A stretch of 64,000 nucleotides of DNA from Vermamoeba vermiformis (GCA_045837725.1 JBEWZL010000077.1:248001-312000); one strand, 5' to 3'; counted from the stretch's first letter, positions 33,599 through 62,820 are shown. Numbers and translations: made by a program. Notes: generated by a model from the sequence alone, not told the origin.

Positions 33599-34713
33599 TT
33601 AAGTCCACTTCATGTTCATGCCCACAAACTGCTTGTTCGTCGTGTCTTCAATCGGCATGGCATCCACGGCATTGTAGCCGTCCCCTGTGTACCCTGACTC
33701 TGAATAGCCAGACTCGACGTGCATGGCGGGGAACAGATCCTCTTTGCGATAACACTTGGCGGAGAACGGGTCCGTGAAGTCAATCATGTGCAGCAAGAAC
33801 GGTCCATCGCGCTTCGAGTCGTACAATCGTGCGCGCAGACTGTTCACATCGCGCAGCTCATCGAACTTCCAGTGCGTCTTTTTGATCTTGCCCTCGTGCA
33901 CGTAGTCCACGGCCAGTCCACCCTTGCTGCTGAAGCGCAACAAGAAGGCACCAATCACACCAATGCGCGCCTTCAACATCTTCTCGGAGAGATTGCTGCT
34001 CACAAAGCCGTGAATGCGCACTGGTGCTGGTATGTCCCATGCGTCCCATAGCTGCAGCGCGGTGTCAGTACGCGAAACAAGAGCACATCTGTAACGGACA
34101 GTACATACCCTGTCAATCAATCGCCAGCAGTGAATAAATGAGAAATTGTCGTCTGATTGGTCCCAAAAGAATTTCAAAAAGCTCTCGCGATCAATAATTA
34201 AGTTGTTGATGTATTCAATGTCTCGGTTACCAAAGGCTTTGTCAAATTCAGTCGAGCCTCGTGCAAATCCTAACCGAGCGCAGTCGAATTAGTATAGTCA
34301 TCACATATACGGACTAGTGACGTACCGAATGCAGCAACAGCAGTTAAGTAAGCAAGACTGGCAATATCAAGCGGACGACGGCACTCTCGTCGTTGACTGG
34401 CTGAAATTAAGTAGTGATAATAATACTGCAAATATACTTTCAAGTGAGTGCCTAATACACCTCTTTTGACTCCCTAAAATTATGAAATAATTATTGTAAT
34501 AATTTCTAAAAAATGGTAATATTATTCAATTAATACCTCTCCTTTGACCATTAGTGCCCAAACAATTGGCCCATGTTGTCTGCAATCAGGGAGGTCTTTG
34601 AATACGTCAATGAATACTTTTACAACTTGCGGATTGAATGCGCTGCTGGCTTGTAAAAGGTTGAATATGGTCTGTCGCGACAAAGTAAATTTATCTTCGA
34701 GTTGTGCATCCAT
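33599..34713 (-). CDS. Small SH2-domain protein (STAT-like linker-SH2)
   Basis: LW..IHGFVS...SEKML....GAFLLRFSSKGGLAVDYV. Several upstream exons have GT-AG boundaries. Confidence 0.72.
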
Positions 34714-35104
34714 TATTTGCTATTTTTAATCCCAGACGGTGATAAACAATGTCTCTTGTGTCGCAAGCAATTTCGTGGATTTGGAACTGACCTGTTTTCA
34801 CAAGGCGGGAATCTTTTGGTGAACACGTGGCTGTCCCTCTTTTTGCGAACAAGGAATACACCTTACTGTAAGTGTCATATGCACCTTAGGTGATAAAAGG
34901 GCCGAATAATATGAGCGCAAGGCACGGATCCCCGTAACTTAAGGCTACATTAGTGACATTGGAGAAGATACATCGACAGGTCAATACACTGCTCATGATA
35001 AGCACTCATGCTTACGAATATGATAGTGTTAGTATTGAGGTGCGGTAACTTTCCTTGTTGTTTTCGTGTTTTATTATTTGTAATCTATTTCGCAACGCCA
35101 CACA

Positions 35105-35938
35105 ATGGTAATGGACTCAATATATCACCATGCACTACATTAAATAGTATACTAATACGAGTGCATTTATAGAGCTCTGGCAAGTTAATTTTGGTTATTG
35201 GTGACTTCCATATTCCTCACCGAGCAAACGATTTGCCCAAAGAATTTAAAGAACTATTGGTAATTATTAATTATTGGACTACTATGGACGAGCTATTCAC
35301 AGTAATATTTATTAATTTTTCTGTTTTACTGTAGGTGCCAAACAAAATCCACCACATATTATGCACTGGAAATTTATGCACTAAAGAAACATACGATTAT
35401 TTAAAGACGATTGCGCCCGATATTCACGTCGTTAAAGGAGATTTTGATGAGGTAATTGGCTTATTATTTTTCGCCCCAAACTTGCGCAGATCTGACTCAG
35501 TCCTCAACGATCTTTCAAACGTTACAAAAGTATTAATGCGTGCCTATTATTAATCATTACTAGAACACTACATATCCGGACGAGAAAGTCATCACGATCG
35601 GTTCGTTCAAGTTCGGTCTTACACACGGTCACCAGATCGTGCCCTGGGGCGACAAAGAAGCACTTGCCATGCTACAACGTCGCTTGGACTGCGATGTGCT
35701 GATCACTGGCCACACACACGACTTCAAGGCCTTTGAATACGACGACAAGTTCTTCATCAATCCCGGCTCAGCGACAGGTGCCTATTACTCGGCCGTGAGT
35801 GCAGTGGGCAGTGTTGCACCGAGCTTTGTGCTGATGGACGTGCAAGAGAACTTGATCGTGTCGTACATCTATCAACTCACGGAAGAGGGACTGCAGATCA
35901 AGAAGATTGACTACAAGAAGCCTGGCAGCGAGCTGTGA
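35105..35938 (+). CDS. VPS29: Retromer subunit VPS29
   Basis: [52 protein letters not shown] and [10 protein letters not shown]. The first exon codes only the ATG. Confidence 0.96.
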
Positions 35939-36051
35939 GCTGTGAGCACTGTAGTAGCGTACATTAATATAAATTGCACTCTAGTCTTCTATACAAAGCT
36001 CTTTATTTGGCAGTCAAGACAATATTATAGTAGTGGTAGCATTATAGTGCG

Positions 36052-36511
36052 TTACACTCGTTCTAAAGGCTCCATCATCACCACACTGTTGCCGCGAATG
36101 ACCTGCGAACACAACATTAGTATTATGTACAATACACAGGACGTATTAGTTCATTGCGTACCACCATGCCAATCTCGTTCTTTTCATTGGCTGAGACCTC
36201 CTCGACTGACTGATCCAAAACGATGTTCATGTATTGGTCAAATCCACGCAAAACACCGACGACTTTTCTGTTGCCATTAAGTTTGACTATAAAAACGATT
36301 AATTATAAAGAGTCACCAGTAGAAAATCAAGATCATTTTTCGTGTATAATAAATAATTATTATCGCCAATATTTTGTAATCAAAGCCACTTACGTGCCAA
36401 GCGCTTGTCCATGTATCTAATAAAACAAATGATATTTAGAACACGTTAAAAAAATTATACGCCAAACATAGCCACTTACTTGCGCATATCTGGTAAACTA
36501 GCCTTGCTCAT
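36052..36511 (-). CDS. SNRPG: Small nuclear ribonucleoprotein G (SmG), 4 exons (not in ORF track)
   Basis: Spliced: [76 protein letters not shown]. Confidence 0.95.
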
Positions 36512-36760
36512 TATCGTATTGTGTATATATCAATGAATTATTGATACTCAAGAAATTAACTAGAACAACAACGAGTGTTTGTTGATGTTCAAAGAGAAAA
36601 AGATAAGCGAAGGCAACGCGCACCAAATTTTAAACCACGGCTCCGGAGTCGATCGCGCTGAGAATCGTAATTGTTAACACACAGCGCTGAGAGTGCCACG
36701 TATACGGGCGTATATCAGCGGAAAGACAAGACTAAATCTAATTGGAGTTTTAATGTACAG

Positions 36761-37405
36761 TCAATAATCAGCAGCACCACTATTGTGTCCATACAGCCCC
36801 AGTGAGAGCACACGCAACACTCGTTGCACTGCATGGCACGCAGTGTGGTTCAAAGGAGTGTCTTGCACCGTGCACAGCAGGCTTAGGGACACGAGTACCG
36901 CTAGCAACAGTGGCACCAAATACCCAAATATTCTCCAACGTTGAGGGTAAGATGTTGGAAGCTTCGCCTTGTTCTCGTTAGAGATAGTATTGAAGGTTTT
37001 ATTGCTAATATTTTTTGTTGTTTGTTGCGGATTTATGTACTGTGGCTGTGTTGCTTCAACATTTTGCTCTAATAATTGGCATTAATAATAGAATAAAAAT
37101 TATAGAATTTATGGAACCTTCTGCGCTGCTGGATTCGAAGCTTTCGTCCAGCTGATCCTCAATTCCCTCAAACTCGTCATCCGAACCTGGTTCCTTGAGA
37201 ATATGCGTTTCGTACAGCTTTATGTAATACTATAGCGAGGAATTAAAGTGTTGTTGGAGGCTAGCTACAGGAAGGAGAGAGACCCACCTACCTCTTTTGG
37301 CTGATCCTTAACGTGCGGTATTATTACACCATTAGCAGACAACAGCGATTTGAGCTTGCTAATTGGCAGCTTTTTATAAGTTGTGTCATCGCGTGCGGTT
37401 GACAT
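36761..37405 (-). CDS. Small LEM-like/HeH-domain single-pass membrane protein (not in ORF track)
   Basis: Spliced: YKKLPISKLKSLLSANGVIIPHVKDQPKE-YYIKLYETHI (LEM-like/HeH pattern), an acidic linker, then hydrophobic IFGYLVPLLLAVLVSLSLLC. The 3' end is uncertain. Confidence 0.65.
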
Positions 37406-37993
37406 TTGTTAAACAAACATGTCACAATGATTCAAGATGGGTTGCAACAAACGCAAAGTACACCGAAAGAAAGAACCTTGATGAACCTGATTCTTGCCAC
37501 CTTGGTCCATGGACCATGATTACGCAAAAAAAGTTAGGAGATTTGCAAAAGATCAGCACCAAGAACGTAAAAAAAGGAGGCGTTGTTTATCCTCGAACCA
37601 ATTATGATTAATATTCCCTCGATATTCAGTCGGTGCTCTTACGTATTTATAGTCGTTCAAGGAATACCTTATCAACTTTATCTTTCCAATAACGACCCAC
37701 GTGTTTTTCGTATTTTTTTGCCGAGTACGAAAAAAAATCACAAACAAATCTCGCTAAGGAAAAAAACTGACCAATAGCGAAGCGGCGTAAAGCAGAAAGA
37801 TAGAAATTTCATGTGACGAACAAAAATTGAGAGACTAAAAATAGCACGTCTATATTTATCAATTTCCTCCCTAAACGCGTTATAAAAATCATTTCGGCCT
37901 CTGTTTTGTTTATCTCAAAGGAACGACAAACAACTTGAGGGGACTAACTTTCAAACAACAAACCCTTCTATTTCATTCATACAAGCTGTAATC

Positions 37994-38966
37994 ATGTATG
38001 GCAACAAGTATCCTGCCTTCTTCTCCTTTGCTGATCCAGTCGGCAACGATTCTGGCTTTGACTTCTTCACTGGAGGAGATGATAACATTCAATTGCACTA
38101 CAATTCATACTTCCCCAGCGATTCTGGTTTTGGCCTTGATCCAAAGGAGTTGCACGGTGTCGATCCTCTCAAATACGAACAAGTTGATTTTATGGACGTG
38201 GAAGAGGAAATGATGATGATGCGACCTCCTTCTTCTCGATTTGATGACGACGATATGTTCGAGGACGACAATTACAACTCTGATGCGGAGGAAGACGAAC
38301 GAGATGTTTCGAACGACGATATGGAAACCAACGAAGACGACGATGAAGAGGAGCTTTCTGACCAATCAAGTAAGTATTTACGAAACTTTCGATTATCGCT
38401 ACGCTCGTTCCACGCCACGTCTCCAGTCACAAATTAATTTTATTTTGGTTTGGGAGGCGTGGGTGAAAATCTCCCACAATTGAGATTTATAACTGCTTTA
38501 TTATCGCTTTCTAGCTCGTATCTAACCCGATTTCATAGGCCGTTCAAACACTGTTAATAGCTCAGCAGTATTGCCCGCTTCAAAAACACCAATTTTGGAT
38601 GCCACCGCCTTTTGCGCTGAATTGAAGATTGGAGCTGAACGAGACGCTGACCCTGAATCAATTAGAATCACCGATTTCAACACATTCATTTCTCAATTGA
38701 AAGTTTACTGCCCGAAGCAACACCAAACCCAAAACGACGAGGCGCGCATTAAAGCCCTTCGCCGCTGGTTTGACGGTATTCCCAACAAAAAGAAACGAAA
38801 GGAATCATTTGTCATCAAAATGAAGCCTGAAAAGAAGAACAAGATTTTAGTGTGCTTCAAAAAGATTCAGAAGTTTGTTCGTGAACAAGGAGCCAGTCCA
38901 CGCGAATCAAATGTGCCTACCAATCAAATGCACTTCGCGCAACAAGCACTTGTCTCGTACTCATAA
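37994..38966 (+). CDS. Hypothetical protein with acidic N-terminal half and basic C-terminal domain, 2 exons
   Basis: ORFs 37994-38437 and 38571-38966 are joined in frame by a GTAAGT..CATAG intron (~38370-38538). No family recognised. Confidence 0.65.
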
Positions 38967-39122
38967 TCACTGGTGATTGCGCAGTCAGTCATCTTATCGG
39001 CTCTGGCCACCAATTTTGTGTCAAATAATGTAAATAGTGTACTATAGTAAACCTCGTTTCCCCGGATATCTCGCCCAATTGTTTTAAGCACACATTTACT
39101 TTGTTATTAATGCGAAGCGGCT

Positions 39123-39155
39123 GTTAGCCGTAAAGGCTTAAAATAGATCGATAAA
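39123..39155 (+). repeat. Left copy of 33-bp direct repeat bounding the desaturase/oxygenase island
   Basis: GTTAGCCGTAAAGGCTTAAAATAGATCGATAAA; 30/33 identical to 48070-48102. Confidence 0.9.
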
Positions 39156-39521
39156 GTGTCTTATTTCAACCCAAACTAAAGTTTCCAATAAACTCAGCTG
39201 GGCCAGTTGTCGAAATAAAATAGTAAATCTCATTAAAAGTAATGTTAGCCTTCGTATTAATGTTAATTACGGTCAAACGCCAGTCAAACCAAAAAGGTCG
39301 GTTGCGATCGCAATTAATGATTGCTAAATTTCATTACATTAATAGACACACTTGAAGATTTAGATAAAGAGAAATCTTTAATTTTTGGCAATGTTGTCGC
39401 GAACAGAAGCACCAAGGTTAGTTAGCAACGATAGTATTTACAATGCAAAATTAACTTTACCCTTAAATACATTTTTTACCAACGAGGCAATCACAAGGTT
39501 ATATAATTTTGTCTGCATCAT

Positions 39522-41364
39522 TTAATATTTTACAGTGTACTTGCCACATAAAATTCTGGAAACAACGCGAGCAGATTCGACGATTGTTGGTACGCCTGAG
39601 CCAGGGCAGGTATTGCCTCCTACGATATAAGTATTCTTAATCTCGAATTGATTAGGCGGGCGCATGAACGACATTTGTTCCATTGTGTGGGCCAACGAGA
39701 AAACAGCTCCGTAATGTACGTTATATTCTGATGACCAATCTTCCGGCGTGATAATCTTTTCATCTTCAATATGATTTCTAATTCCGACCAATCCTAATTG
39801 TTCTTCAATTATAGATAACACAGTCTCGCGGAACGGTTGCGTTAGTTTTTGCCACCCATCGCCATTTCGCATAATCTTCAAGTTCGGAGTTGGAACAAGT
39901 ACGTATAATCCAGTCTTATCAGCGGGACAAACAGTAGGGTCAGTAATGCCGGGGAAACAAACGTACATCGCTTTGTTGAGATCCGTCGGGTTAAAATCGC
40001 CAGTATGACAAACTTCAGTAGAATTCTTCTTGACTTCGTTTGGATAGAGTATGTTATGGTGGCAAGTAAGAGTGTCCCATCGCTTATTCAAGCAAAGGTA
40101 CATCATGAATGTGGAGCATGAAAATTCCATTGAGTTGAGCCGTGTGCGAGTCCATTTTTTCAAATGTGTCTCATCGATCAGCTTGTTTAAAGTATAGCCA
40201 AAGTCTGCATTCATGATGACCTCGTCAGCTTCAATCAAGTCTCCGTTCTCCAAGAAGACGCCATTTGCTGCACCGTTCTCTATTTGGATCCTACTGACCG
40301 ACGACGCAAGTTGAATTTTTCCGCCAAGTTCAGTGAAAACTTTTGCAACGCCGCGAAGAATTGAGCTCAGACCACCCTCTGCGTACCATACACCGTACTT
40401 GCGTTCAATATATGGAATCATCGAGTAGATGCCAGGACAAGAGTATGCGCTCATTCTGTTAAAGCTTAGATAAGAATTTTAAGCTTATTAACAACGATTT
40501 GCCTTACCCTAAGTACTTGCTATGAAAAGAAAAAGCTAATTGGCATTGCTCATCAGCGAAATAATTTGCAAAAACATCCACGAGACTTTTGCCGATAGGA
40601 ATGCTTGGTAACGATGCGAGCCAATCTAGTGAAATACAATCCAAAGCATTTCGGATAGGTCGTTCCAGTAGTCCATAGCAAGCTCGCATCTTCTTGTCCT
40701 CTCTTTCGTTGAATTTGTCTAATCCTTTTTCATCGCCCGGAAACACCGCGGCGATCTCTTGTTTCATCTTTTGATCGTCCGCATACAGCGTGATCTTCTT
40801 GCCATTAGCGAAGTGAACTCGATTGAAAGTCTCGAGTTTGATTAGCTTGGCGTAATCGTTCAAATTTCTTCCAGACTCAGCAAAAATTTCTTCGCAAACG
40901 TTCTGAATGGTTCGAATCAATTAAATAAGTTTACTTATTATTTCTCAGCTTACCTTTAACATCAAGAGCGTTGGTCCTACGTCGAACAGGCAAGAACCGA
41001 CTTGAATTTGTGCGTTTCTTCCACCAATATGATTGTTCTTTTCAAGAACAGTAACATCGAAACCGCGTGCTTGCAGCAACATGGCTGCACTCAGACCGCC
41101 CCATCCAGCGCCAATAACGATCACTTTCGGTCTTCTTTTTGTAATTGGCGTTTGAGGTATGGGCCTGTGTTGCAGGTCTAGCGGCTCGTATTTACTGACT
41201 CCTTCTCCGAAGCGCGGATAGTAGCGCTTTGGAACGCTCATCGTGTTCTGTCAAACGAACATTAACTGATGGAGTTATTATTGCAGGGCAGTGCGGATCG
41301 TTACCTTGATGAGCAATCCAATGAAAGCTGAGGCGCATGCAATCAATACCACACTTAGTATCAT
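39522..41364 (-). CDS. CrtI/CrtN-family FAD-dependent carotenoid desaturase, paralog 1, with N-terminal hydrophobic anchor
   Basis: VIVIGAGWGGLSAAMLL..VTVLEKN..GGR, FDVGPT, FSFHSKYLGMS, GVWYAEGG, SCSTFMMYL, YVLVPTPNL and YIVGGNTCPGSGVPTIVESAR. Exon 1 is MILSVVLIACASAFIGLLIK. Confidence 0.88.
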
Positions 41365-41574
41365 GACTTTTGTTGTCTTCTGGGTACTCAGGTATTCAAT
41401 TGAATTCTGTTTTATATTTGCCCGGCGGAAACGGTTTCCGCTGATTGCAATGCATTCAAAATGTCGGAGTCTTGTGTCCGCTAGATGGTTTCACAAAAGT
41501 ATTATTAGACACGATGTCGGCATCAAGTTCCGAAAAGATCAAGTGTATTGTTTATTGCAACACTGTTTGGCATC

Positions 41575-43466
41575 TTAGTACTTGTTGTCATACTTGCGGC
41601 AAATGTAATTAGTCACAATCCTTGCCGCATCGATGAGCGTTGGAATGCCAGCACCCTATTAGTACGGTTTAAACATTGTCAAGATTATTATTATGGATCA
41701 TACTTACTGGATGATTAGAAGATCCGACGAGCCACGTATTCTCAATTTCAAACTTATTCGGGGGTCGTAAAATTAAGATTTGCAACATTTTGTGTTCCAA
41801 CCCGAAAACAGCTCCGTACGGGATGTTGTAATCAGCCTCCCAATCAGCAGGTGATATGATCTTCTCTTGCGCTATCGAGTTCGAAAGATTATCAAGCTTG
41901 AGTCTCTTTTCTAACCGCGCCAATATGGTCTTCTTGAAGATCTGCTTGATCTGATGCCAATTGATGTTTGGATTGATTTTTCTATTCGGAACTGACACTA
42001 AGACATACATGGCTGTATTATTCTCGGTTTGGATCGATGGATCCGTTACTCCAGGGAAACAAACGTACATGCTGTGTTCTTCACTGAGCGGATCAAATTC
42101 GCCAGTTTCGCAAACTCTCTTCATACACGCTTCAAAATCGGTCGGAAAGACTATGTTGTTATGAGAAGTGATGCTTGGCCATTTTCTATTGAGGTTTAAG
42201 TAGATCATAAAAGTTGAGCACGAGTACGTCATCTTGTCCATGGTCTTCGGGCTCCATGTCTTCAACGGTTGATCGATTGCATTCTTAACTAGCCAAGCAA
42301 TATCGGGGTTCATAACAATGTCATCTGCTTCGATAATTTCACCACTTTCTAGCGTAACCCCTGTCGCGGCTCCATTTTTCGTGTTAATCTTTTGTACCGC
42401 AGATGAAAGTCTTAACGTTCCTCCGTATTCAGTGAATACCTTCGCCATGGCTTCTAATATACTGCTTAGTCCTCCTTTTGTGTACCAAATTCCATCGGCT
42501 CTTTCAAAGTACGGAATTGAGATGTACGCGCCGGGACAAGTCCATGGGCTTGCTCTGCATTATTATCAGTTTGATGCATCTCGTTATGGTATTTCTAAGA
42601 GCGCGGATTACCCTAGATATTTGCTATGAAAAGAGAATGCCCATCGCAAAGCAGGAGAGGGAAAGTAATCGCCAAGAACGTCAAAGAAGGATCTGCCCAA
42701 AGGAAGCCAAGGTATGGATCGCATGAGGTCGATGTTAATCAAATCAAGGAAGCTGGCATAGGGCCTTGCTAATGCCTTCATTAAATATTCTCCTCTCGTT
42801 TTTTCAATCTTCATCATGCGATCCAAGCCAGCTTCCTCGTTCGGAAACAATCGTCTAATTTCTTCTTTTTGCTTTCCGTGATTCGAAGTCAGTAGCATAT
42901 CTCGACCATCACCAAAATAGATTTTGAAAAACGGATCCAATCTTTTCAGTTCCACATAGTCGGCCAGTTTTCTCCCGGATTCACAAAAAGCTTCTTCTAA
43001 GACATACTTCATTACTAAAATAGTTGGACCAGAGTCTAGGCGGCAATTTCCGAGTGTAATTCTTCCTTGACGACCGCCAATCTGTTCGTCTTTTTCCACA
43101 ATGGTCACGTCAAATCCTCGTGATTGAAGTAACATGGCTGAAGTAAGTCCTCCCCAGCCAGCTCCTGTAAATTCGGACGATGTTAAATATATCTTGCATG
43201 AATTAACCTTCCTACCAATAACTACTATTTTAGGTTTTCTGCGGTTGCCGTTTGGATGTTGAACGAATGGAGTTTTTCTAGTTGACATATCCAAGGGCTT
43301 GAACTCGTCGAAATTATTCGAAAATGGAGGGTAGTAACTCTTTCGATGCTGTCTTTCATTCTGAAATGCCACTTATTAACCAGATCTAAACGATCGTACA
43401 AATCCATACCTTGACGAGTAGCAGAACAACGCCAGCGAGTAATGCGGTAAGTAGCAATAGAATCAT
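41575..43466 (-). CDS. CrtI/CrtN-family carotenoid desaturase, paralog 2, with N-terminal hydrophobic anchor
   Basis: IVVIG-AGWGGLTSAMLL, LDSGPT, FSFHSKYLG, SCSTFMIYL, YGAVFGLEH and HP-GAGIPTLIDAAR. Exon 1 is MILLLLTALLAGVLLLVK. Confidence 0.88.
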
Positions 43467-43636
43467 GTTGTGGTGTTTTTGTGAACTAATTGATCAAAAA
43501 GAGCCTGATTTACTCCTTTGAAGCTGATGCAATGGCTAGAAACTGGTGGCGGAAACTTTTCACGCCGACTCACAATTATTGAATTGGTTGCATTATTAGT
43601 AACATCAACACAACACAAAATCAACACGAATTGCAT

Positions 43637-45572
43637 ATGTTTATCACTTTACTAGTCGTGACTCTCGTAATTGCGCTAACATTCGTGACTTTAGTCGTGG
43701 TCAAGGTAAGTAGAACGAATTTGGTCATTGTTTCGCGTCACTATTAATACCGAATGTAGAATGAGCGATCAATGCCAAAGAAATACTACCCTCGATTTGG
43801 AATCGGGGTACAAGACTACAACCCTTTAGATCTATCCGGCAGACAGCAACCGAAAACGGCCGACAATAGGGCGCCTAATGTTATCGTCATTGGTAATTTA
43901 AACAAGACCAAGCGTTTCAAAATACTTACGTTATATATGCCTTTTAGGGGCTGGTTGGGGCGGTCTTGCGTGCGCAATGTCACTTCGGTCTCGCGGATTT
44001 GACGTTCTAATCGTCGAGAAAAATCCTGATATTGGGGGACGGAATACTCCCATTGAAGTTGGTTCATGCAAATTCGACGTTGGCCCGACGATGCTTCAGT
44101 TTAAAGTAAGCGGTGGAAAAATGAGTCTTGCTTGCTAACAAGTTTTAATAGCACATCGTCGAAGAGGTGTTCGCTGAGTCAGGAAATCGCCTTCAAGATC
44201 ACGTCAAGTTGACGAGACTAGACAACTACAACCGAATTTATTTCGACGATGGAATTGCGCTGGATTTGTACACGGACGATGAAGTCATGAAACAAGAATT
44301 AGATCGCGTATTTCCTGGAGCCTCGAAGGGACTGGAGAAGATGTACGAAAAAGAGAAGGAAAGAGGACCGTTATTTGTCTCGTTACTCGAGCGATCGTAC
44401 ACGAGCATTTTGGATTGCTTCACGTTGAATTGGTTCAGAGCTGTTACAAAGATTCCCCTTGGAAAGAGCTTGATGGACGTTCTCGGAGAATATTTCAGTG
44501 ATAAGCGATGTTGCTTAGCCTTTAGTATTCATAGCAAGTACCTCGGGTAAGTTCCGATCATTTCTGCGAGTAAATAACACTAATGTACTTGCAGAATGAG
44601 CCCGTGGAAATGTCCGGGACTTTACGTAGTAATTCCGTACTTTGAACGATTGACTGGTGTTTGGTACACTGAAGGTGGTCTTTATGCAATCGTCAACGCT
44701 ATGAGAAACATCTTTGTCAAAAATAACGGAAAAATCATGTTTTCAAGCACGGTCAAGTCCATTCACATCGAGAACGGAGCAGCTAAAGGAGTTATCTTGC
44801 AAGACGGAACTTTATTGCCTGCGGACGACGTTGTGATTAACGCTGATTTTGCATATGCTGCTCACAACCTCATCGGCGATAAGCACCTGAAGCGATGGAC
44901 GACGAAGAAAGTTGACTCTTGCGATTACTCTTGCTCCACGTTTATGATGTACATTTCACTGAACAAGAGATTTGATTCGCTCAAGTGCCACCACAACATC
45001 ATATTGGCCAAGGACGTGGTCAAGAATATGGATCAAATCTGCGTCTCTGGCGATCAAGACCCACGCGATGATAACAGATCAATTTATGTCTGCTTCCCTG
45101 GCTTGTCAGATCCAACCGTTTGTCCTGCCAACAAAACCGGGCTTTATGTCCTAGTACCAACTCCCAACTTGAAAATCGCCAAAGAATCGTCCGAGAAGGT
45201 GTACAGTCAGCTAAAAGAGACTATTTACTCAATGCTAGAAGACAGATTAGGCTTAGCTAACGTACGAGATTACGTTGAAGCAGAGAAAATCTTGACACCC
45301 GAGAACTTCGTCAACGATTTCAATGTGCATTATGGCGCTGTATTCGCTTTCGCTCACTCGATGTCTCAAGTCATGTTTAACAGACCACCCAATCAGTTTG
45401 AAATCAAAAACATGTTTCTCGTTGGAGGTGGCGCGCATCCGGTACGTCCGGCATTGTTCTCCGACTCAAACGTACTAATCCTGACTTTTAGGGCTCTGGC
45501 ATACCAAGCATTGTAGAATCAGCTCGCATCACTTCTCGTTTGCTTTGCAAAAAGTACAATATCGAGTATTAA
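43637..45572 (+). CDS. CrtI/CrtN-family carotenoid desaturase, paralog 3, with N-terminal hydrophobic anchor
   Basis: VIVIG-AGWGGLACAMSL, FDVGPT, HSKYLG-MSPWKCPG, SCSTFMMYI, YVLVPTPNL and VGGGAHP-GSGIPSIVESAR. Exon 1 is MFITLLVVTLVIALTFVTLVVVK. Confidence 0.88.
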
Positions 45573-45750
45573 GATGCACAAGATATTTATAACCCTCGTC
45601 GGAGATTCAATCCGAAGACAATTAAAAACAGTGTCTATTTTTACCCTCGTAACGAAATTTTAGCGATTGCTTTCGTGTCAACGTCTGAAGTTTGTCGGAA
45701 TCACCACCCGACCCAATTTAATTCATTGAAAGTTTGTTTGGCACGACTCA

Positions 45751-47958
45751 ATGCCAATAATGATGATAATCGATTATCTTTTGGAAATAGGTCTCTTTCT
45801 TTTGGACTTTTTGAACTTAATTAACAATCTGTTGCGGCGTAGAAAGACAAAATCCGAAGGTCAGGATCCCTAGACGAAGTGTTTAAACGAGAACCCAATT
45901 AACTGTTAATCTAACTCCAAAGGATCAACGCACTTGACAGGAAATTTTTTGCCTATTCACGATGAAATAGAAGTAGACTCATTCCATATTGAAGGAAAGA
46001 TTCCAACCGATTTAAACGGAACCTACATCCGCAACGGACCAAATCCACTCTACATACCTAAACACTACCATTGGGTACCCTTAATATACAATGCCAATCA
46101 TTCTTACTAACGAATATCTATCGTAGTTTGACGGCGACGGTATGATACACGCGATGACGTAAGACTCAATTGATGCGCGATGTGAAACTCGAATAGACTC
46201 TTACTGCCATATGTTATAGGATCCAGAACGGTCACGTCACCTATAAGAATCGATACATTCAAACGGCCAAGTTGTGCCGCGAAAAGAAGGACCAATTCTG
46301 CGTCAGTTTTCAGAGACCAATTAAACTCTTAGTAACCTTCCTTATATAGTATGAGCAATCTGTTGTTACTCGGGGCACTAAGACATGACCCCTATAGCGC
46401 ATACAAAGTGATTGCGGCGATGTTCAAGTGGGGCTTGCGGGTTCCAATGGACCAGTACAACAATGCAAACACTTCATTCGTCTATCACAACAACACTTTG
46501 TTAGTGCTGTCTGAAGTCGCCAAGCCTATAGAGGTTGGTACTATACATTAGGGTCCACGCTTCCTCAATCTCATTTGTTCCTTGTAGTTGAAATTTCCTT
46601 CTTTGGAAACCATCGGAATGTACGATTTCAACAAAAAGCTTCGCAGGAATATGACTGGTAAGGTATTGTTTGCGGTTGGTGATAAATTGACCCGCTATTT
46701 TAGCTCACCCGAAGATCGACCCCGCGACAGGGGAATTAATTTTCTTTGGCTATCCACCAACACCAGTTGACGGAAGAAAAGTGCATTATCACGTGGCAGA
46801 TAAGTGAGTTACAAGCCTTGAACTTGACAGAGATGTTAAACAGACTCAACTACAGAAATCTCAATATCACTCACTCGCTGCAAGTTCCTGTGTCGGGCAA
46901 TGAACTGATCCATGATTTCGCGATTACGGTGCGTAGCGTACTTTCCTGTTTGGTATCAAAGGAATTAACCAGGATCACGTATAGCCCAATTATACTCTCT
47001 TGCCGGATCTGCCACTCAGATTGGATCTGATCCAATGGATGCGTGGGCGAGGTGGCTATAAGTTTGACAAGAGAGGTCGCTCTCGCATAGGTACACTTTG
47101 AAAGACTAGTCTATTGTTGAAATTCTCTAATCGAGATCAGGAATATTTCCGCGCTATGCCAAATCAAGCAATGAAGTTGTGTGGTTTGAGACGCCTCTCT
47201 GCTTTTTTTTCCACGTCATCAATGCTTGGGAAGAAGAAGATCAAGTCGTACTCATTGCATTGAGGTATTTAGTCCGATGAAACCGCATGTTGTAGTAATT
47301 GTTTTGTAGGCAAAAACAGACGCTTGCTTTCGGTCTCGTTCCAGATGACCCCACCGTGCGCGGTACGTCACTTTACTAAGGTCAGCGAAATGTAATGCGA
47401 TCATTTGTAGAGCATGCCACGCTGTACGAATGGCGATTTGATATGACGAAAAGAATTATCGTGAGTGAGACACCTATCCAGAGCGGATTTTGCGTGGAAT
47501 TTCCGTCGGTGAACGAGAAGTACTGGACGAAGAAAAATAGATTTGCGTACCTCGGTCTGTTCGATGACAACAAAAACATTGACGGCAGAACCTACGGAGG
47601 TAAATTACTGCAGATATTCTCTTCGTAACTAAGAATGGTGCAATCATAGTGTTAAAAGTGGATCTGCAAAACAAGGTCAACAACCAACCTTACGTGTTGC
47701 CCAAAGGACATTTCTGCGGCGAGTTTTTGTTTGTCGCCAGTGACAACTCGCAAGAGGAAGATGATGGTTATTTAAGTAAGTGAATTATACTGTTTTTAAT
47801 TATTCAGATCTAATCGATTTTCAGTGGCGTTCGCTCACGATGAAGGAGAGAACATATCGTATTTCTTAATCCTTGATGCACAGTCAATGAGATTTCAAGC
47901 CCGGATCGACATTCCTAGACGAGTGCCTTACGGCTTTCACGCAAAGTGGATCAAATAA
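45751..47958 (+). CDS. Carotenoid cleavage dioxygenase (CCD/RPE65 family), highly intron-fragmented
   Basis: Spliced motifs [80 protein letters not shown] and [10 protein letters not shown]. All four Fe-ligand His motifs are present. Confidence 0.9.
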
Positions 47959-48069
47959 TTAATTTATAGTACGATAAACTGTTTTCATATCATGCGGATT
48001 CGAAAGCCTGTGCTGTGCTTTTCTTTAGCTAGGTCTCGGTACGGACCATTCATCTTGTGCACAGATTAC

Positions 48070-48102
48070 GTTAGCAGTAAAGGCTTAAAATAGATTTATA
48101 AA
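48070..48102 (+). repeat. Right copy of 33-bp direct repeat bounding the island
   Basis: GTTAGCAGTAAAGGCTTAAAATAGATTTATAAA. Confidence 0.9.
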
Positions 48103-48145
48103 CAACGGGTATGAACAGTTCAATAAATAAAAGAATCAACGACAA

Positions 48146-49574
48146 TTAGTGTTTGTTGTAGGCAGACCACTCAATCGCGTTGTTGAGGATGGAGAAATCG
48201 CCAAACACGACTGCAGATCCGCTTGCCGAGGGAGCAGCAGGGGTGGTGGAGTTGCCCTTATGACCTCCCGGGCCCACAGTGAAGTAGAGAATGATCGTGA
48301 GCACTGCACCCAGCAAGGCCACGCACAGCACGATAATAGCAATCATGCACTGTGAGAGTATTAGTAGTGCAGTAGTGTCACATCCAAGGACGTACCTTTC
48401 TGCCACGTTTCGCCAGCTTGTTCGCCTTTTTGAGCTGTCCAGTAGCCTCTTTCATATAGCCAGTAGCATTCTCGATGTTGACTTCAATCGAAGTGATCAT
48501 CTCGCTCTGTTCGGCCACGAGTACGGCCATGTCAATGAACAGCTGTTGCAATTGATTCAAACTCTGCTCGATCTTCATGATTTCTTGGTGACGATCCTAG
48601 AGAGACCGATGTGTTAATAGTGAGCTTGTTAACGCATGTTCTATATACGTACACGAATGTATGACAAGGCAGTCTCGGCAGCCTTTTGTTTGTCCACCGT
48701 CTTGTCAGCGAAGATGCGGTCAGCATTGCCACTCTCAATGGTGTCGTTGATCTCATCTTCGGTGGCATCAGGACGCACTGTATAATTGAGGTTTGAGTGC
48801 CAAGCTGATAATACTGTGTAGTTAAAACAGTCACGTACCGACCAAGATCTGACGTCTGACATTGTCTTGGTACTGTTGTTTGTACTTGGCCTGCACTCCT
48901 TGATAGTGCTGCATAATTTCCACGAATTGTTGCACCAGACTCGCGTGCGTGTTCTTCTTAATCCGCTCTTCTGCAGCCTGGGCTTGCATCTGCTTCACCG
49001 AGGCTGTGTATGCATGTAATTAACATTTGTATCGCATATGTATACGCTATTCAAATACCTGTAGTGTCTGTCTTCACCATTGCCTCCAGTTTTTCCTTAA
49101 CTTCGTTCGCGATCTTGTTAGTGTCATCGACGATCTGGTCTGCTTCATTTCCAAGCTCTGTAAAGGTAATAAACTCATTAAAAAAAGATCATAAACAGTG
49201 GCTCAGAATTTCAATGAAAGCAATTAAATTCCCGATCTGTTCGGACAAACCGCAGTGTTAATAAATACAATTTGAAGCACTCACTCTTCTTGTCCTTAGG
49301 GTTAATTTTCTGTAATTGTTCCGTATATTTTTCTTCCAATAATTCGATGTTATTCTGAATCTTTTTCATTGAGATGCGGACGTCATTGACACCAGAAAAG
49401 AAGTCAGACATAAATTCATTGCCATCAGCTGCCATCTCTTCATCTTGACTATGGTCATCACTACCTAAGTGAGGATTGGTCTAAATATTATTAATAAGCG
49501 GATCAGGACCACGTTAAATAGTTGCAATAATTTACCTCGGCAAACTTATTTAAATCTCGTAATCTATCTAACAT
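48146..49574 (-). CDS. Plasma-membrane-type syntaxin (Qa-SNARE, syntaxin-1 family)
   Basis: N-peptide MLDRLRDL, FMSDFF, Habc helices, SNARE motif IEQSLNQLQQLFIDMAVLVAEQSEMITSIE and a C-terminal TM segment. Confidence 0.92.
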
Positions 49575-49747
49575 GATGATGGTGACAATAATAAATAGTG
49601 TGATATATAATACAAGTGTGTATGTTCTATTGACAAGCGTAACGGACACTGGTTTGTTGCGCGAATTTCTGAACGGGCTGTTTTTTTCACGACAAACCGC
49701 GAACACTACACTGCAACATTATATTACATTTATAGTAATTATTAGCG

Positions 49748-50713
49748 ATGAGATTCAAATTCTGCGGTGATTTAGATGCTCCTGACTGGCTGCTCAAAGA
49801 AATATCAACTCTTTCAAAGATTGTAAGTCAGATGCTTTGGAGAATCGCCGACACAAATTTAAAAATTAGCACAATTTGCTTGGATGACAATTATTATGAA
49901 ATTTAATGCCGAGCTGTAGTTACAAATTAAAAGTCAGATCTGACTTTTCAATAGAAATTGACTAACCCGTTATTTGTTGCAGTCTGGTATTAAAATCCGC
50001 TTATTATGTAACGAAATTATCAAGCACTTACAAGGAAGTGAGATCGAGGTACGTAGCATTTTAATTGAATAATATCTTTAATACGGATCCCATCCAGTAC
50101 GAAAACATCTATAAACACACAGCGGGCGCTAATTTAGGTACGTAACAAATCATGCAAATACCATGTAGCTCAATCTCGCTTCAGAGGACTCGGATGTGAA
50201 GGCAGTGGTAGCATCGCTCAATTTTATCATCTTCAACTCAGCCAAGTACAATGTGAACGGCGACACAGTGGCCAAAGAGTTGCAGCAGTTAGGTCTGCCC
50301 AAAGAGCACTCTGAAGCGGTCTCGAAAGTCTATCTCAGCAAGAAGGACGTGCTCCGCGATGTGTTGCGCGGTCAAACGCTCAAGTGTAAGTCACGTGATT
50401 CGCGTGTCAGTACCCTCTGACCACACTATCTGACCACTCGTTTAGTGGGTCAGCTCGTCACATTAGAATGGCGCGTGGACTATTTGATCAGCTCGAGTTC
50501 ACTCTCAGATCTCAATGTCCCCACCGTGCAGTTGCAAGTCACCACCGCGCAAGATAAGGCACGTGATCAACTCGCCTTTGAAGTCAGTGCGGACAAGTTG
50601 CGTGTGCTGCTGAGTGGTAAGTGTTGTGTGGTTGCTGAGGGATTCAATTTGACACGTGTCATACAGAGCTGCAGACGGCCAAAGCGATGATGGACAAGCT
50701 CGAAGGCGTGTAA
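49748..50713 (+). CDS. COMMD4: COMM domain-containing protein 4
   Basis: N-terminus [36 protein letters not shown] and COMM domain [12 protein letters not shown]. Confidence 0.92.
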
Positions 50714-57496: not shown

Positions 57497-60400
57497 TCAT
57501 TTTTTACTTTGCGCGACTTCTGGCGGTTCCAAAACACGACTTCGTTTGAAGAGCTCTTTGTCGTCTAATATAAACAGTTCTTGTCGCAAAAATGCTTGTG
57601 CATCAGGGTCAGGTTGAATGTTTGTGTACTGGCTTTGTTGGGCACGTTGGATCTGCAATAAAATGGCCGATAATTTCTTCATTTTCTTCCAATTGATCAT
57701 GCTGCCGTCGAGTTTGGTCGGATTTCCGTCATTAATGAACGTCAAATCAGCCAAAAACAGACCAATGTACGGCACCAGGGGCGGGGCTTCGTTCTGCATG
57801 AGCGGACGATAGTTCTTCCAGTTCTGTTCGGGCGAGACAATCAACGACAGCTTGCCGAGGATGTCAGTGTACTTCTTGTTCATAGTCTTCCACGTCTGAT
57901 TCAATCGCTTCACACTCGGATTGTTGAGCCCTCCGACAATCTCGAGCAGTCCGTTGTAGTTCTTATACTTCAAGCAGTACTGTAGTACAAATTCATTAGA
58001 GCGCTGTGAATGGCATCATTTGACACGTGTCAAGTTCTTACCTGCGCGATTAAAATGAACTTCTTGATGAGTGTTTGACGGGCTTTGACACTTTGCGCGC
58101 TGACCACTTCAGTCGCCACCCACGAGCTGACTTTGTTCACAAATGTCACCACCGCATCCAAGTTCGGTGCTTCGGCTTCACGATTTTCTTTCTTGCCCAA
58201 GATCCAGTAATTCACTTCGCGGAATGAAATCTTTTTGAACAAATTGAACTCAAAATACGTCAATTGTTTCGCAAAGTTGAGTGGATCAAAGTCTTTAGCC
58301 CCGCGTGATGAGGGCTTTTCTGAGTTGTGCGGCATTAAATTCCGCAGCACCACGAGCTGTTCTTGTTCTTTGGTCAACTGCAAACAATAAATTAGCCTCA
58401 ATTAATCCGATTAGATGCATAAGGGACGTACATTGCTCGAGTATTTTTTGCTCTTTTTGAACGGCTCGTCGATGGTCTTGGTGTCTTTGGCCAGTTTGAG
58501 CAGTCCTTCCACCAGCAATTGATTGCACACCTCAATCGCGTCGTCTTCGTCCAAATTGAGCTGTTTTTTGAACCACTTCAACATGTCTGTGCCTGCAAAT
58601 GTGTCTTTGCTCTTCGACGTTGATTTGATGCCCGTGTCAGGGTGCTTCATGCTCACCACGACCTCATCGAGACAGTCTTTGTTGATGCCTGCCATCTGTT
58701 GCAACACCTCGTCAGTCACTAGCACTGCGATATATATATTAGCAAGAGCTTACTTTGTAGCGGATGAGTCGTTTCATCAGGTCTCTGAAGCCAAATCGTT
58801 TGTCGTGAATGCTGCCCTTCAGATCTGTGTCGCAGAACCGCAGCACTTTTTCCACGAGCTCATTATTGCCCTCCCTACGAGTGTGTTAGCGCTAATATAC
58901 TCGTCATAGATAATGATATATAATATGTGATATAGAAGTGTATAAGACATATGGGGATACAGACTTTGACAATAACCTGAAGTCGTTGAAGTTGGTTTCA
59001 ATCCACTGCTGAAACACTTCAATCACGCGCAGCTGAATAAAACTCTTCTTTTGATCGAATTCTTTGCGGTCCGATTCGCCTTCAGGGGCCTGCAACAATA
59101 GTCCGATTAAGCATTGTTATTTAACTGATTGATTCTATTCTGCGCACCTTTTGTTCAAATCGATCCACCAGCATATTCATCAGTGTGAGGGGCGTTGAAA
59201 AATAATGCAAAGTCAACAAGAATTCTTTGGCGAATGTGTTGTCTGCATTACATTTGTTAGTCAACTAGGCGATGGTCCTATATATATTAATAACAAGCAA
59301 TAGCGTACCTTTGTGATGAGTGGGTGAGGTGAGGGCTTTGACCAGGGCCTCCATGCTGCCTCCGAGAATGAGTCGTTTCTCCAAGTCCTCTTCATTCGGC
59401 ACAAATTTGAGGCCGTCCATCACGATGGCTTTGGCTTCGTTTTCAGCCTCGAGCTTGGAGCCGTCTTCTTTTTCCGCCTTGGGAATTTTGACTTTGAGCT
59501 TGGTCGAGGTCTTGAGTTTGTTGGGCGGTGTTTGCTGCGTGGGTTTTGAAGCAGAATTGCGCGGAGATTTCTTGTCACGTGCTGAAGTGGGTGCTGACTG
59601 CGCCTCTTTGGAGTCACGTGGACTCTTTTGCGAGGCTTTGAGACCGACTGACAGCGCACTGGAGACACCAGCCAAGCGAGGCACGGTGTTGGGCCCAGGA
59701 CCTGACGAGGACTTAGTGGTGACTGTGGCCTTGGTCTCAGCGGCAGTCTGTGAACTTGAGAGCGGATTGGACGAGCCTGAGGACTCGGGGGTGTGCGATG
59801 TGCTGCTCTGATTGGACTCGTTCTCGTTGAGCTGCAGATCTGACTCGTCATCGCTCAAGTCACTGATGGACAAGTCCAGTTCAATGTCCTCGGTGTCTGC
59901 AATCTTCGACTGATTCATGATCTGATCGTTCAATGCCACACGTTGCAGCCACTCAAAGGCTGAAATCATGTTGTTATCGGTTTCACGTGCACTGCTCGGT
60001 CGATCACTGCGCATTGAGGTATTTGAGCGCGTGTCTTCATCGCTGGACGAGAGCTCATCAAAGACCAGACCCGGTGCCCCACCAGGGCCCAGTGCCACTG
60101 ACTGACTTCTGCTGTCTCTGCGCGATATTAATGACATGCTGCTCGGTCCACTGCCGTTGTTGTTGTTGTCACTCAGATTGCGCTTGGGTCTTCAGCAACA
60201 CGTTAGTAATGTGGGGTTGGGCGTGTCAGAAGGATATTGTAGTTAATAGTAATTGCATAAAGACGTGGAGGAGTCATTATAAGCTACGTTGTCATGTTAT
60301 GGCATTAAAAATGTGACAAATAAGGTGACAAAATCAAATTTAATTTGTAAATTTTGATTTTGAACTTGCGGATGTGGACTTGTGAACACGACAATAAATG

Positions 60401-60500
60401 ATTGCTTTAAGAAAATTACAATAAAAATTAAATCTGTTTAAGTAACTTACTTTTTGCGCTCTACATCTGTTGAAGTTGATCCACTGTTTGGCGAGGACAT
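57497..60500 (-). CDS. Ras guanine-nucleotide exchange factor (REM + DEP + CDC25)
   Basis: REM (GGSMEALVKAL, FLLTLHYFSTP, IQLRVIEVFQQWIE), DEP (TFAGTDMLKWF..DAIEVCNQLL) and CDC25 (FAKQLT, WVATEVV, NYNGL, VPYIGLFLADLTFINDGNP). Confidence 0.92.
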
Positions 60501-61272
60501 AATTACATTTGCCCTAATCAATATAAAATAAGTCACACATTTATAATCAATATGAACACAACTGCATTATTGATTGCAAAGCGTTAAAAATAAAGCGTGG
60601 GAATTGCTCCTGCTTCACATAATCTTCACAGTATTTTATTGCACGACAAAAGAAACAATTTTTATCGAATGAATTTATATAATATTATGTGATTATAGAG
60701 TATTAATAGCGCTATGTAATATTCGCCTCTAAAATAAAAAAATATTTAAATTTTAACTGCATCCACCAAATCAAACAAAGACATTATGATACACTCTCAT
60801 TTGAGCTATAATAAATAGTGGTGCTTGGTAATAGATGTTTAAAGCTTACCTAGAGAATCACTTTAAAATAGTCCTATTTTTATAAAACTCCAAACGTTCT
60901 AGAGTGGCTGTATAAATATATCGATATACCGCTGTATATCACTAAAATAGAGCAAGTTTGTTAAGACCACTGTTGTTGTTCTCTATTCGGGCTGTAACGG
61001 TTAATTGTCAGGCAAAATATGATTTTGTCGAGGAATTCGTCAAATCACAACTAAGACTACTCACTATACAAGGACTATGCTTAGTATAGAATCAACTATG
61101 TTGAGAACGGGTGGAATTGCTTTCCGATTCGGATCTGTTCGCTGAAAATCGAATCACAAAATCAACTCTCGCGCAGATCGTAAATTCGCTCGAATATATT
61201 CGCAGTGTCATATTTATTTACAAGGTACTATTGACCACAGTTTAGTATTGTTCTCACGAGTCAAGGGCTAGA

Positions 61273-62463: not shown

Positions 62464-62820
62464 TCTGAGTTGTTGTGTTGTTTAGGTTGCGAGATGTTAA
62501 AATGAAACTCAACCAAAGTTCGGCTTTTGTGCTGACGCAAGACAGTTTCTACGAATTTCAAGTAACGCCTCGCGTAGTAGAATTGCAATTCTAGCGAACA
62601 TATCCTCATTAGTGGCAATTTTGTACCAGTATCATATCAGGCTGTCAACCTACGGCTCGGGTAATTTTCAAATAAACAAATTTCAAACCAAAATAATGTT
62701 CCCTATTTTTCTTTGCTGATCGTGCACTAAAGCACAAAATAAGAATCAGTGTTATTTATTAGCAGTGTTAAATTGAATAGTGTTGTTTTGCTCAAGCAAC
62801 AGGAGTGACAACGCTAAAAT

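Follow-up and report, generated by a model that had tools for sequence, protein, structure and literature searches.

A compact cluster of four adjoining, intron-bearing genes occupies positions 39522-47958 of the window, a 64,000-nucleotide (nt) stretch of Vermamoeba vermiformis DNA (GCA_045837725.1 JBEWZL010000077.1:248001-312000) that was analysed at its full length. Three of the genes encode 560-amino acid (aa) flavin desaturase paralogues, here called des1, des2 and des3, and the fourth encodes a dioxygenase of the RPE65/carotenoid cleavage dioxygenase (CCD) family. Both strands of the region were read and gene models were assembled from the coordinates (Table 1). All three desaturase genes have complete, uninterrupted reading frames, and their 12 introns are without exception of the GT-AG type, with lengths of 46-57 nt.

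An earlier interpretation of the same DNA, made from the sequence alone (the sequence-only reading), had described four intron-containing neighbours about 170-210 bp apart, with paralogues 2 and 3 divergent and with the flavin adenine dinucleotide (FAD)-binding and four-histidine iron motifs kept. The gene models bear this out: the spacers measure 210 bp (des1 start to des2 stop), 170 bp (between the starts of des2 on the minus strand and des3 on the plus strand) and 178 bp (des3 stop to CCD start), the dinucleotide-fold motif GAGWGG is found in des1, des2 and des3, and the CCD model holds four histidines. A search for a promoter motif shared by the three upstream spacers was negative, as no 8-mer of 43467-43636 occurs in the other two and the single 7-mer common to the upstream spacers is within chance (50/300 shuffles).

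Table 1. Coordinates of the cluster genes and of features within them (positions in the window)
Feature	Position	Strand	Description
des1	39522-41364	-	560 aa, 3 introns; exons 41364-41305, 41247-40954, 40902-40508, 40455-39522
des2	41575-43466	-	560 aa, 4 introns; exons 43466-43410, 43360-43216, 43164-42612, 42554-41708, 41655-41575
des3	43637-45572	+	560 aa, 5 introns; exons 43637-43705, 43760-43892, 43948-44105, 44152-44546, 44595-45441, 45492-45572
CCD (model A)	45751-47958	+	14 exons, 501 aa; RPE65/carotenoid-oxygenase family
Divergent des2/des3 start-codon spacer	43467-43636		170 bp; presumed shared promoter
Helix-only first exon, des1	41305-41364	-	19-23-residue hydrophobic helix, nothing else
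Helix-only first exon, des2	43410-43466	-	19-23-residue hydrophobic helix, nothing else
Helix-only first exon, des3	43637-43705	+	19-23-residue hydrophobic helix, nothing else
CCD exon 4/5 junction	46271-46350	+	no in-frame closure with strong splice sites

Family and phylogenetic placement of the desaturases

CrtN enzymes produce conjugated C30 carotenoids from a colourless C30 backbone, either 4,4'-diapophytoene or squalene. The desaturases were compared with databases as exon or open reading frame (ORF) pieces, and the 318-aa last exon of des1 served as query for the protein searches. Pfam found Amino_oxidase and/or NAD_binding_8 on five of the eight desaturase ORF pieces (NAD_binding_8 at 4.8e-15 to 9.5e-11), and the NCBIfam model TIGR02734 (crtI_fam, 'phytoene desaturase family') was the best model for 6/6 pieces. 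Exon 4 of des1 alone scored 248.5 bits against this model, above its curated cut-off of 238.1, while two exons of des2 scored 195.7 and 128.7 bits and exon 5 of des3 scored 196.1 bits. NCBIfam has no CrtN-specific model, and all paralogues of bacterial C30 clusters match only TIGR02734 above threshold. The C-terminal G-G-x-x-x-P-G-x-G-x-P motif is kept in variant forms (GGNTCPGSGVP, GSSNHPGAGIP and GGGAHPGSGIP).

The best PDB match of des1 exon 4 was Pantoea CrtI (4DGK, 9.1e-39) at only 136.7 bits, compared with approximately 285 bits for the best bacterial CrtN-type proteins. When the last exon of des1 was compared with 1.84 billion representatives, 5069 matches were obtained at E <= 1e-3; after one match of 53% identity, the top representatives were proteins of about 500 aa with 38-44% identity to the query. 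A search of named proteins with the same exon gave 827 significant matches among 1336 candidates. An exon ORF 99.7% identical to des1 in NCBI/Logan belongs to the same species, and closely related sequences were found for each gene, namely P0152, a 78% identical orthologue of des1, P0230, a 98.8% match to des2, and the exon ORF P0001, a 95% match to des3. A 498-aa EukProt protein (P0153) is 45% identical to the des1 last exon, and its accession prefix is that of the Pharyngomonas kirbyi transcriptome described in PMC5421314. Next in rank were proteins from bacterial metagenome-assembled genomes (MAGs) named 'phytoene desaturase family protein' (41-47% identity). No full-length annotated eukaryotic orthologue was present among proteins of 558-2000 aa (14 matches, 33-44% identical). 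Within the cluster, des1 and des3 are 55% identical and des2 is the most divergent paralogue, at 46-47% identity to the other two.

Three trees were built. The FastTree tree held 221 rows: the three spliced window proteins, P0152, P0001 and P0153, the labelled locus ORFs of 430-640 aa and the representatives of 440-640 aa among P0002-P0150, with shorter or longer rows excluded. A quick IQ-TREE tree was made from an 86-row subsample, and a careful IQ-TREE tree (LG+G4; supports given as UFBoot/SH-aLRT) from 63 rows after removal of 23 long-branch or near-duplicate rows. In the 63-row tree des1-3, P0152 and P0001 formed one clade (100/100), and all three trees agreed on the order within it, (des2,(des1+P0152, des3+P0001)). 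This window clade lay inside a 37-row CrtN clade (100/99) which also held 30/30 context-labelled CrtNa rows together with P0153 and P0005; the corresponding support was 100 in the quick tree and 98 in the FastTree tree. Outside the CrtN clade were CrtNc (support 100), CrtNb/CrtP (on the outgroup side, 99-100) and a CrtI-like group, recognised via P0028, which scores 473.5 bits to CrtI 4DGK. An identity of des1-3 with CrtI proper, the C40 phytoene desaturase, was rejected because the P0028 group lies outside the CrtN clade, and CrtNb/CrtP and CrtNc were likewise rejected, as both form separate clades.

On the sequence evidence, the desaturases are assigned to the CrtN type (C30), of bacterial descent, and not to CrtI. 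The sequence-only reading had named three CrtI/CrtN desaturases and a cleavage dioxygenase; the families and the count stand, and the CrtI part falls, as the trees place des1-3 in the CrtN clade.

P0153 and P0005 (520 aa) paired with support of 90/97. A constrained tree that joined them to the window clade had a log-likelihood 20.5 above that of the free search result (p-AU 0.737), and FastTree likewise united the three (support 97); this grouping was chosen only after the trees had been seen, and P0005 is an unnamed protein. A single eukaryotic CrtN lineage made up of the window clade, P0153 and P0005 is therefore not rejected and may be the better tree, a hint that CrtN may form a larger family in eukaryotes that has gone unnoticed. 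Alternatively, P0153 and P0005 may reflect contamination of a transcriptome by a prey bacterium. Both proteins have a C-terminal C-x-K-Y-x-[IV]-x-[YF] ending in common with the window proteins, and the composition of P0005 is K/N-rich.

The gene neighbourhoods of the bacterial relatives were also examined. A profile made from three window exons and 23 relatives, searched in bacterial and archaeal contigs taken as one genome per species, gave 590 pattern matches, of which 587 were confirmed; locus counts below refer to the best 80 of these 587 (37-45% identity). They include Methylomonas, Methylovulum, Methyloglobulus, Planococcus, Paenibacillus, Anoxybacillus, many Verrucomicrobiota and Kiritimatiellota, and scattered other phyla. 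Context was labelled by Pfam on 111 ORFs of 13 loci and then by local BLAST across all 80 loci. An aldehyde dehydrogenase neighboured the CrtN gene in at least 34/80 loci, a second amine-oxidase paralogue of the CrtNb/CrtP type in at least 32/80 and a GT2 glycosyltransferase in at least 11/80, while SQS_PSY (CrtM) and CrtNc were each found in at least 5/80, these being Firmicutes loci; the counts are lower bounds because the ORF caller lost the matched gene in 7 loci and many contigs are short. C30 clusters arranged as crtN-ald-crtNb or crtNa-crtNc-crtM-crtNb are thus a frequent setting of the nearest bacterial relatives. In Planococcus maritimus the order is the match, a second paralogue, SQS_PSY and a third paralogue on the opposite strand, in agreement with orf1 (CrtNa), orf2 (CrtNc-like), orf3 (CrtM) and orf4 (CrtNb) reported for P. 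maritimus iso-3, for which CrtM and CrtNa (diapophytoene desaturase) activities are described as demonstrated in E. coli (PMC8502411).

Several further features of these bacterial loci were recorded. An ICMT/PEMT-family methyltransferase lies beside crtN in at least 9/80 loci (L008, L017, L021, L025, L033, L043, L060, L068 and L069), mostly from Methylococcaceae plus one archaeal MAG, and is a candidate for methyl-esterifying C30 carotenoic acids; for Planococcus, the account in PMC8502411 gives a methyl ester as end product and describes the cluster as having no gene for making the carotenoid carboxylic acid. Fusions occur among the relatives P0272-P0274 and P0278, with CrtN-like sequence joined to PF11127 in three proteins and to GT2 in one (676 aa, Verrucomicrobiales), and an aldehyde dehydrogenase is fused to DUF2141 in an Acidobacteriaceae C30 cluster (L056:10942-12807). 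In Cloacimonadota, Clostridia and comparable anaerobes, many CrtN-type genes are solitary, with no aldH, crtP or crtM nearby (L009, L018, L019, L027, L035 and others), which agrees with a remark in PMC9907078 that Clostridia have CrtN only.

Gene structure, history and genomic setting

Intron positions are shared among the desaturase paralogues. Two positions occur in all three, a phase-0 one behind the first exon and a phase-2 one within KYLG; in addition, positions IG|AGWGG and HP|G are common to des2 and des3, and position LK| to des1 and des3. The introns therefore predate the duplications, and since the paralogues are only 46-55% identical the triplication is old. Many of the 25 cluster introns, whose lengths are tight (45-63 nt), have a branch-point motif resembling CTAAC/CTAAT that lies 10-25 nt upstream of the AG, which may be a clue to the lineage of the host.

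The first exon of each desaturase gene encodes a hydrophobic helix (Kyte-Doolittle 19-residue maximum of 2.73-2.89 at residues 1-3), and is followed by a linker of about 45 residues with a conserved YYPxF...PLD motif. In the alignment, helix and linker are both missing from bacterial CrtN, P0153 and P0005. CrtI is described in PMC3382138 as membrane-peripheral with no spanning segments, so the anchor is seen as an addition. Because positive residues come after the helix, the proteins are predicted to be targeted to the endoplasmic reticulum with a cytosolic catalytic domain. Taken together, the common introns and the N-terminal helix exon point to one old transfer, followed by domestication and then tandem triplication. 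This history, together with the family assignment, is the part of our interpretation in which we place high confidence.

The four cluster genes have a G+C content at third codon positions (GC3) of 0.44-0.52, compared with 0.55-0.73 in eight neighbouring host exons; the low value, which includes that of the CCD gene, fits incomplete amelioration or low expression. G+C is uneven along the window, at 38-43% in 34000-50000 and 60000-64000 and 46-57% elsewhere, and host exons inside the low-GC stretch still have high GC3 (VPS29-like 0.69, syntaxin 0.60).

The surroundings were assessed by comparing 210 window ORFs with Pfam (27 of at least 150 aa window-wide, 89 of at least 55 aa in the 5.5-kb flanks and 94 of at least 100 aa elsewhere), a scan that small exons may escape. 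The flanks consist of ordinary eukaryotic genes, encoding an NF1-like RasGAP, CDC73, Exo70, an RNB nuclease, a kinase, a RhoGAP, Nsp1, OGT and UPF1, and further neighbours include an SH2-like piece, a VPS29-like protein, LSM, a syntaxin, COMMD, a HEAT/DUF4042 protein and a RasGEF. The Atlas cluster closest to the UPF1 exon has Zoopagomycota as its commonest source, a weak indication of the host lineage. The sequence-only reading had taken the host for a eukaryote that keeps no synthase, cyclase or opsin gene by the cluster, and both points were upheld: the RasGAP/NF1-like, CDC73, Exo70, UPF1, OGT, syntaxin, COMMD and Nsp1 neighbours are eukaryotic, and SQS_PSY, lycopene cyclase and opsin were absent among the 210 scanned ORFs. 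The same ORFs contained no Amino_oxidase gene beyond the triplet, and Rfam and tRNA scans of the window gave no matches. Directly upstream of the cluster are two ORFs on the plus strand without a Pfam match (37886-38437 and 38526-38966); the first is very acidic, with a D/E-rich tail, and has a GC3 of 0.45, like the cluster genes.

As the nearest named homologues of the desaturases are bacterial, the cluster could in principle be bacterial contamination or an assembly chimera. Against this stand the 25 spliceosomal introns, the eukaryotic genes on both flanks of one 64-kb sequence and first exons that are eukaryote-specific, and the gene structure effectively refutes it.

For the dioxygenase, Pfam PF03055 (RPE65) was found on three of the four CCD ORF pieces, two of them above the cut-off (35.3 and 34.0 bits versus 27), and an Atlas look-up of a CCD exon returned the same family. 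The model has His86, His202, His253 and His496 in HWFDGDG, AHPKIDP, IHDFAIT and GFHAKW contexts, and Glu171, Glu324 and Glu382 in motifs usual for the family; from the roles of the family motifs we take the four histidines to be the iron ligands and the three glutamates to form the second shell. The first exon encodes a moderately hydrophobic N-terminus, and 12 of the 13 introns are canonical (45-63 nt). In five of six exon queries the top PDB match was a 'carotenoid 9,10-dioxygenase' (9LUZ/9M6Z/9M3E) or the NCED VP14 (3NPE), the remaining query, exon 4, matching CAO1 alone at E = 2.1. Summed over exons, the scores were approximately 131 bits for 9LUZ-type proteins, 89 for VP14, 49 for CAO1, 36 for NOV1, 33 for LSD and 17 for ACO. 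CAO1, NOV1 and LSD are presumably stilbenoid cleavers. Compared exon by exon, the CCD thus leans towards the 9,10-dioxygenases and NCED rather than the stilbene cleavers, and the grouping with stilbene cleavers that the sequence-only reading had feared for its own case did not emerge from this crude per-exon comparison. An 82-aa CCD exon searched against a large protein set gave six candidates, none of them significant.

A possible squalene route and competing readings

The proposal that we favour joins these elements into a pathway. A bacterial CrtN-type gene would have entered the eukaryotic lineage long ago, gained spliceosomal introns and a first exon coding for a membrane-anchoring helix, and undergone tandem triplication in the order (des2,(des1,des3)), with a CCD1/NCED-like dioxygenase now adjoining. 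The three FAD enzymes would be held by their N-terminal anchors on the cytoplasmic face of a membrane, probably that of the endoplasmic reticulum, where they would act on squalene or dehydrosqualene supplied by the squalene synthase of the cell's own sterol pathway. No dedicated carotenoid synthase would be needed, because a sterol-making eukaryote already makes squalene at the endoplasmic reticulum. The three copies may split successive desaturations, and possibly terminal oxidations, among themselves in the manner of bacterial CrtNa/Nb/Nc trios, and the adjoining dioxygenase may act on the C30 polyene, or on carotenoids taken in as food, by cutting a 9,10-type double bond; the resulting apocarotenoid aldehydes or ketones could serve as pigment, protectant or signal. 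Judged by structure, 4,4'-diapolycopene cut at 9,10/9',10' would yield a C14 dialdehyde together with C8 methyl ketones. We regard this composite, in which a domesticated CrtN triplet makes C30 polyenes from squalene and the CCD cleaves their product or a dietary carotenoid, as evenly balanced between true and false. A C30/squalene substrate for des1-3, taken by itself, falls slightly short of an even chance.

Published work on bacteria supplies a precedent for the absent synthase, since the squalene route reported there needs no CrtM. CrtN enzymes are described in PMC9907078 as accepting squalene, on the basis of planctomycete crtN and downstream genes expressed in E. coli, where the same C30 carotenoids were obtained whether squalene came from hpnCDE or from a cyanobacterial sqs. 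According to the same source, CrtM is missing from most bacteria outside the Firmicutes that carry CrtN, which have HpnCDE or Sqs instead, and crtN is prone to duplication (PMC9907078). Methylomonas, which is among the nearest relatives of the window proteins, is reported in PMC10745290 to be without crtM and to have a single SQS.

A number of observations weigh against the proposal, and the first concern the desaturases themselves. In the careful tree the window clade is basal in the CrtN clade, its sister being the other 32 rows, with support of only 90/64. The branching of the clade at the CrtN base leaves no close characterised relative from which to deduce its function, and its weakly supported position within CrtN does not allow a donor phylum to be named. 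Moreover, among 125 alignment columns conserved in at least 90% of 73 bacterial CrtNa, des1 keeps 95, des2 92 and des3 93, compared with 114-125 in bacterial rows, 117 in P0153 and 110 in P0005. About 17 replacements are common to des1-3, for example GAGPGG to GAGWGG, FTFQ to FSFH, EH to ER and IYH to VWY, and the FSFH, ER and VWY states match the CrtI-like rows, not the CrtN rows. It is mainly on account of these replacements, which make a shift of substrate or chemistry possible, that membership of the clade is not equated with substrate. In des2 the second of two vicinal histidines is also replaced (SHNN versus CHHN), which hints at a different extent of desaturation. The proposed catalytic residues of CrtI, given in PMC3382138 as R148, D149 and R152, could not be mapped, as the region is unconserved even among the CrtI-like rows.

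The genomic context adds to the points on this side. The usual C30 partners, namely a crtP-type oxidase beyond the triplet, aldH, a carotenoid-type glycosyltransferase and an acyltransferase, were all absent from the window. The absence of a synthase applies to the 64-kb window, so that crtB or crtM may be present elsewhere in the genome. Finally, tblastn found a CCD in 0/80 of the bacterial CrtN loci, and the pairing of CrtN with a CCD is therefore without precedent in this sample.

If a CrtB-type synthase were encoded elsewhere, the triplet could belong to a classical C40 pathway, desaturating phytoene, with the CCD making retinal-like or other apocarotenoids. The CrtI-like FSFH, ER and VWY states in all three proteins would suit such a pathway, as would a clade position near the split from the other subfamilies and evidence that covers only 64 kb of the genome; C40 pathways derived from horizontal gene transfer (HGT) and paired with carotenoid oxygenases are moreover described in heterotrophic protists (PMC10016063). 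However, des1-3 group with CrtN (100/99) and not with the CrtI-like group, their nearest relatives occupy C30 clusters, the window has neither synthase nor cyclase, and the CrtI of the SAHNTO system belongs to a different, Bacteroidetes-related lineage that is often fused (PMC10016063). We therefore consider a C40 role unlikely, while still giving it some weight.

The same residue changes would also be expected if the flavoenzymes had been neofunctionalised away from carotenoid backbones, for example towards the desaturation or oxidation of some other isoprenoid or lipid, the CCD being unrelated or serving dietary carotenoids only. Each protein departs from 24-26% of the columns conserved in the family, in many cases together with the other two, and even the dinucleotide-fold motif is altered (GAGWGG versus GAGPGG); a new membrane anchor and linker, and the lack of a CCD in the 80 bacterial loci, point the same way. 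On the other side, 31 columns are invariant over a 26-row alignment of CrtN relatives and are kept in des1-3, although by definition, as these are among the rows; four carotenoid-family genes are packed into 8.4 kb, about 200 bp apart, and orthologues are intact at 78% and 95% identity. A departure from carotenoid chemistry is accordingly judged improbable.

The remaining difficulties lie in the dioxygenase. It was compared with PDB as six exon-sized queries of 40-82 aa, with E-values from 1e-10 to >1, and its exon 4/5 junction does not close in frame with strong splice sites. Use of a well-formed 48-nt intron (donor GTCAGT at 46302, ending in TAG at 46349) puts the reading frame of the following exon off by one base, and when all frame-keeping introns were enumerated, the only GT-AG introns had weak donors at 46271 or 46274 and lengths of 76-79 nt; the weak CAO1 alignment of exon 4 suggests that coding runs past 46274. 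The junction could be an assembly indel (there is a purine run near 46281-46290), a weak-donor splice or a true frameshift. A frameshift would suit the view that the CCD, if not the whole cluster, is a functionless relic in decay, as would the lower GC3 of the cluster relative to the host exons, perhaps a sign of low expression. Yet the three desaturase frames are complete at 560 aa with canonical introns throughout, the CCD gene has canonical introns at its 12 other junctions and retains the catalytic His and Glu, intact exon ORFs are found in a second strain and in relatives, and a one-base assembly error or a weak donor explains the junction equally well. Decay is thus very unlikely.

Relation to known carotenoid systems and significance

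Fungal car clusters of the carRA/carB/carX/carO type combine a bifunctional synthase/cyclase, a desaturase, an oxygenase and an opsin. They resemble the window in that a eukaryotic genome has a desaturase placed near a carotenoid oxygenase; the window differs in having no bifunctional synthase/cyclase and no opsin, and its desaturases are not of the CrtI/Al-1 type. The window CCD resembles CCD1/NCED enzymes (9LUZ/9M6Z/9M3E and 3NPE, its best exon-sized matches) in the four-His/three-Glu contexts, and differs from them, as far as a comparison by exon goes, in its hydrophobic N-terminal exon and its 13 short introns.

HGT-derived carotenogenesis is found in animals, in aphids and mites. It is also described as established in heterotrophic eukaryotes, in the crtIBY/SAHNTO group of thraustochytrids, Thecamonas, Oxyrrhis and Noctiluca (PMC10016063). 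As in the window, desaturases of bacterial descent there co-occur with carotenoid oxygenases in non-photosynthetic eukaryotes, but these systems use CrtI (C40) with CrtB and a cyclase, often fused and related to Actinobacteria, Bacteroidetes or Archaea (PMC10016063). The window desaturases, in contrast, are unfused, triplicated and of the CrtN type, with no synthase, cyclase, opsin or Blh nearby; the term 'CrtN' occurs 0 times in PMC10016063.

The bacterial C30 clusters of Methylococcaceae, Planococcus/Bacillales and Planctomycetes are like the window in holding members of the CrtN clade with several CrtN-family paralogues side by side, and most of those outside the Firmicutes are described as having no dedicated CrtM and taking squalene from Sqs or HpnCDE (PMC9907078, PMC10745290, PMC8502411). 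In the window, by contrast, the paralogues stem from a lineage-specific triplication and not from the old CrtN/CrtP/CrtNc split, and there are introns, an added N-terminal helix, a eukaryotic host and a CCD partner, with no aldH, glycosyltransferase or acyltransferase. The architecture, which the sequence-only reading did not recognise, is unfamiliar as far as eukaryotes are concerned, while in bacteria several CrtN-family paralogues in one C30 cluster are well known.

A natural eukaryotic CrtN or C30 pathway was not found in a full-text literature search, a provisional result with supplements and subscription journals outside its scope. In its passages on distribution, PMC9907078 names bacterial phyla and a single archaeal class as the only holders of CrtN, and it regards this enzyme and the synthesis of C30 carotenoids as belonging to bacteria and a few archaea. 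We tentatively suggest, with more doubt than conviction, that the cluster may represent the first eukaryotic C30 'squalene-route' pathway, in which an anciently acquired CrtN triplet anchored in the endoplasmic reticulum would draw on sterol-pathway squalene and supply a heterotroph with C30 polyenes with no carotenoid synthase, and cleavage by a dedicated CCD1-like enzyme would lead to a new class of eukaryotic apocarotenoids serving as signal or pigment.

The cluster lies between the bacterial C30 clusters and the HGT-derived carotenogenesis of eukaryotes. If the proposal is true, it would be a third independent kind of horizontally acquired carotenogenesis in eukaryotes, and the first such acquisition that does not depend on a transferred synthase, since the substrate is already made in all cells that produce sterols. 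The squalene route would then be directly testable in a eukaryotic cell, and three naturally diverged CrtN variants with a linked cleavage enzyme would be available for pathway engineering. Should the enzymes have abandoned carotenoid chemistry, their common replacements at conserved sites would be signs of a new activity within a flavoenzyme family that has been studied well.

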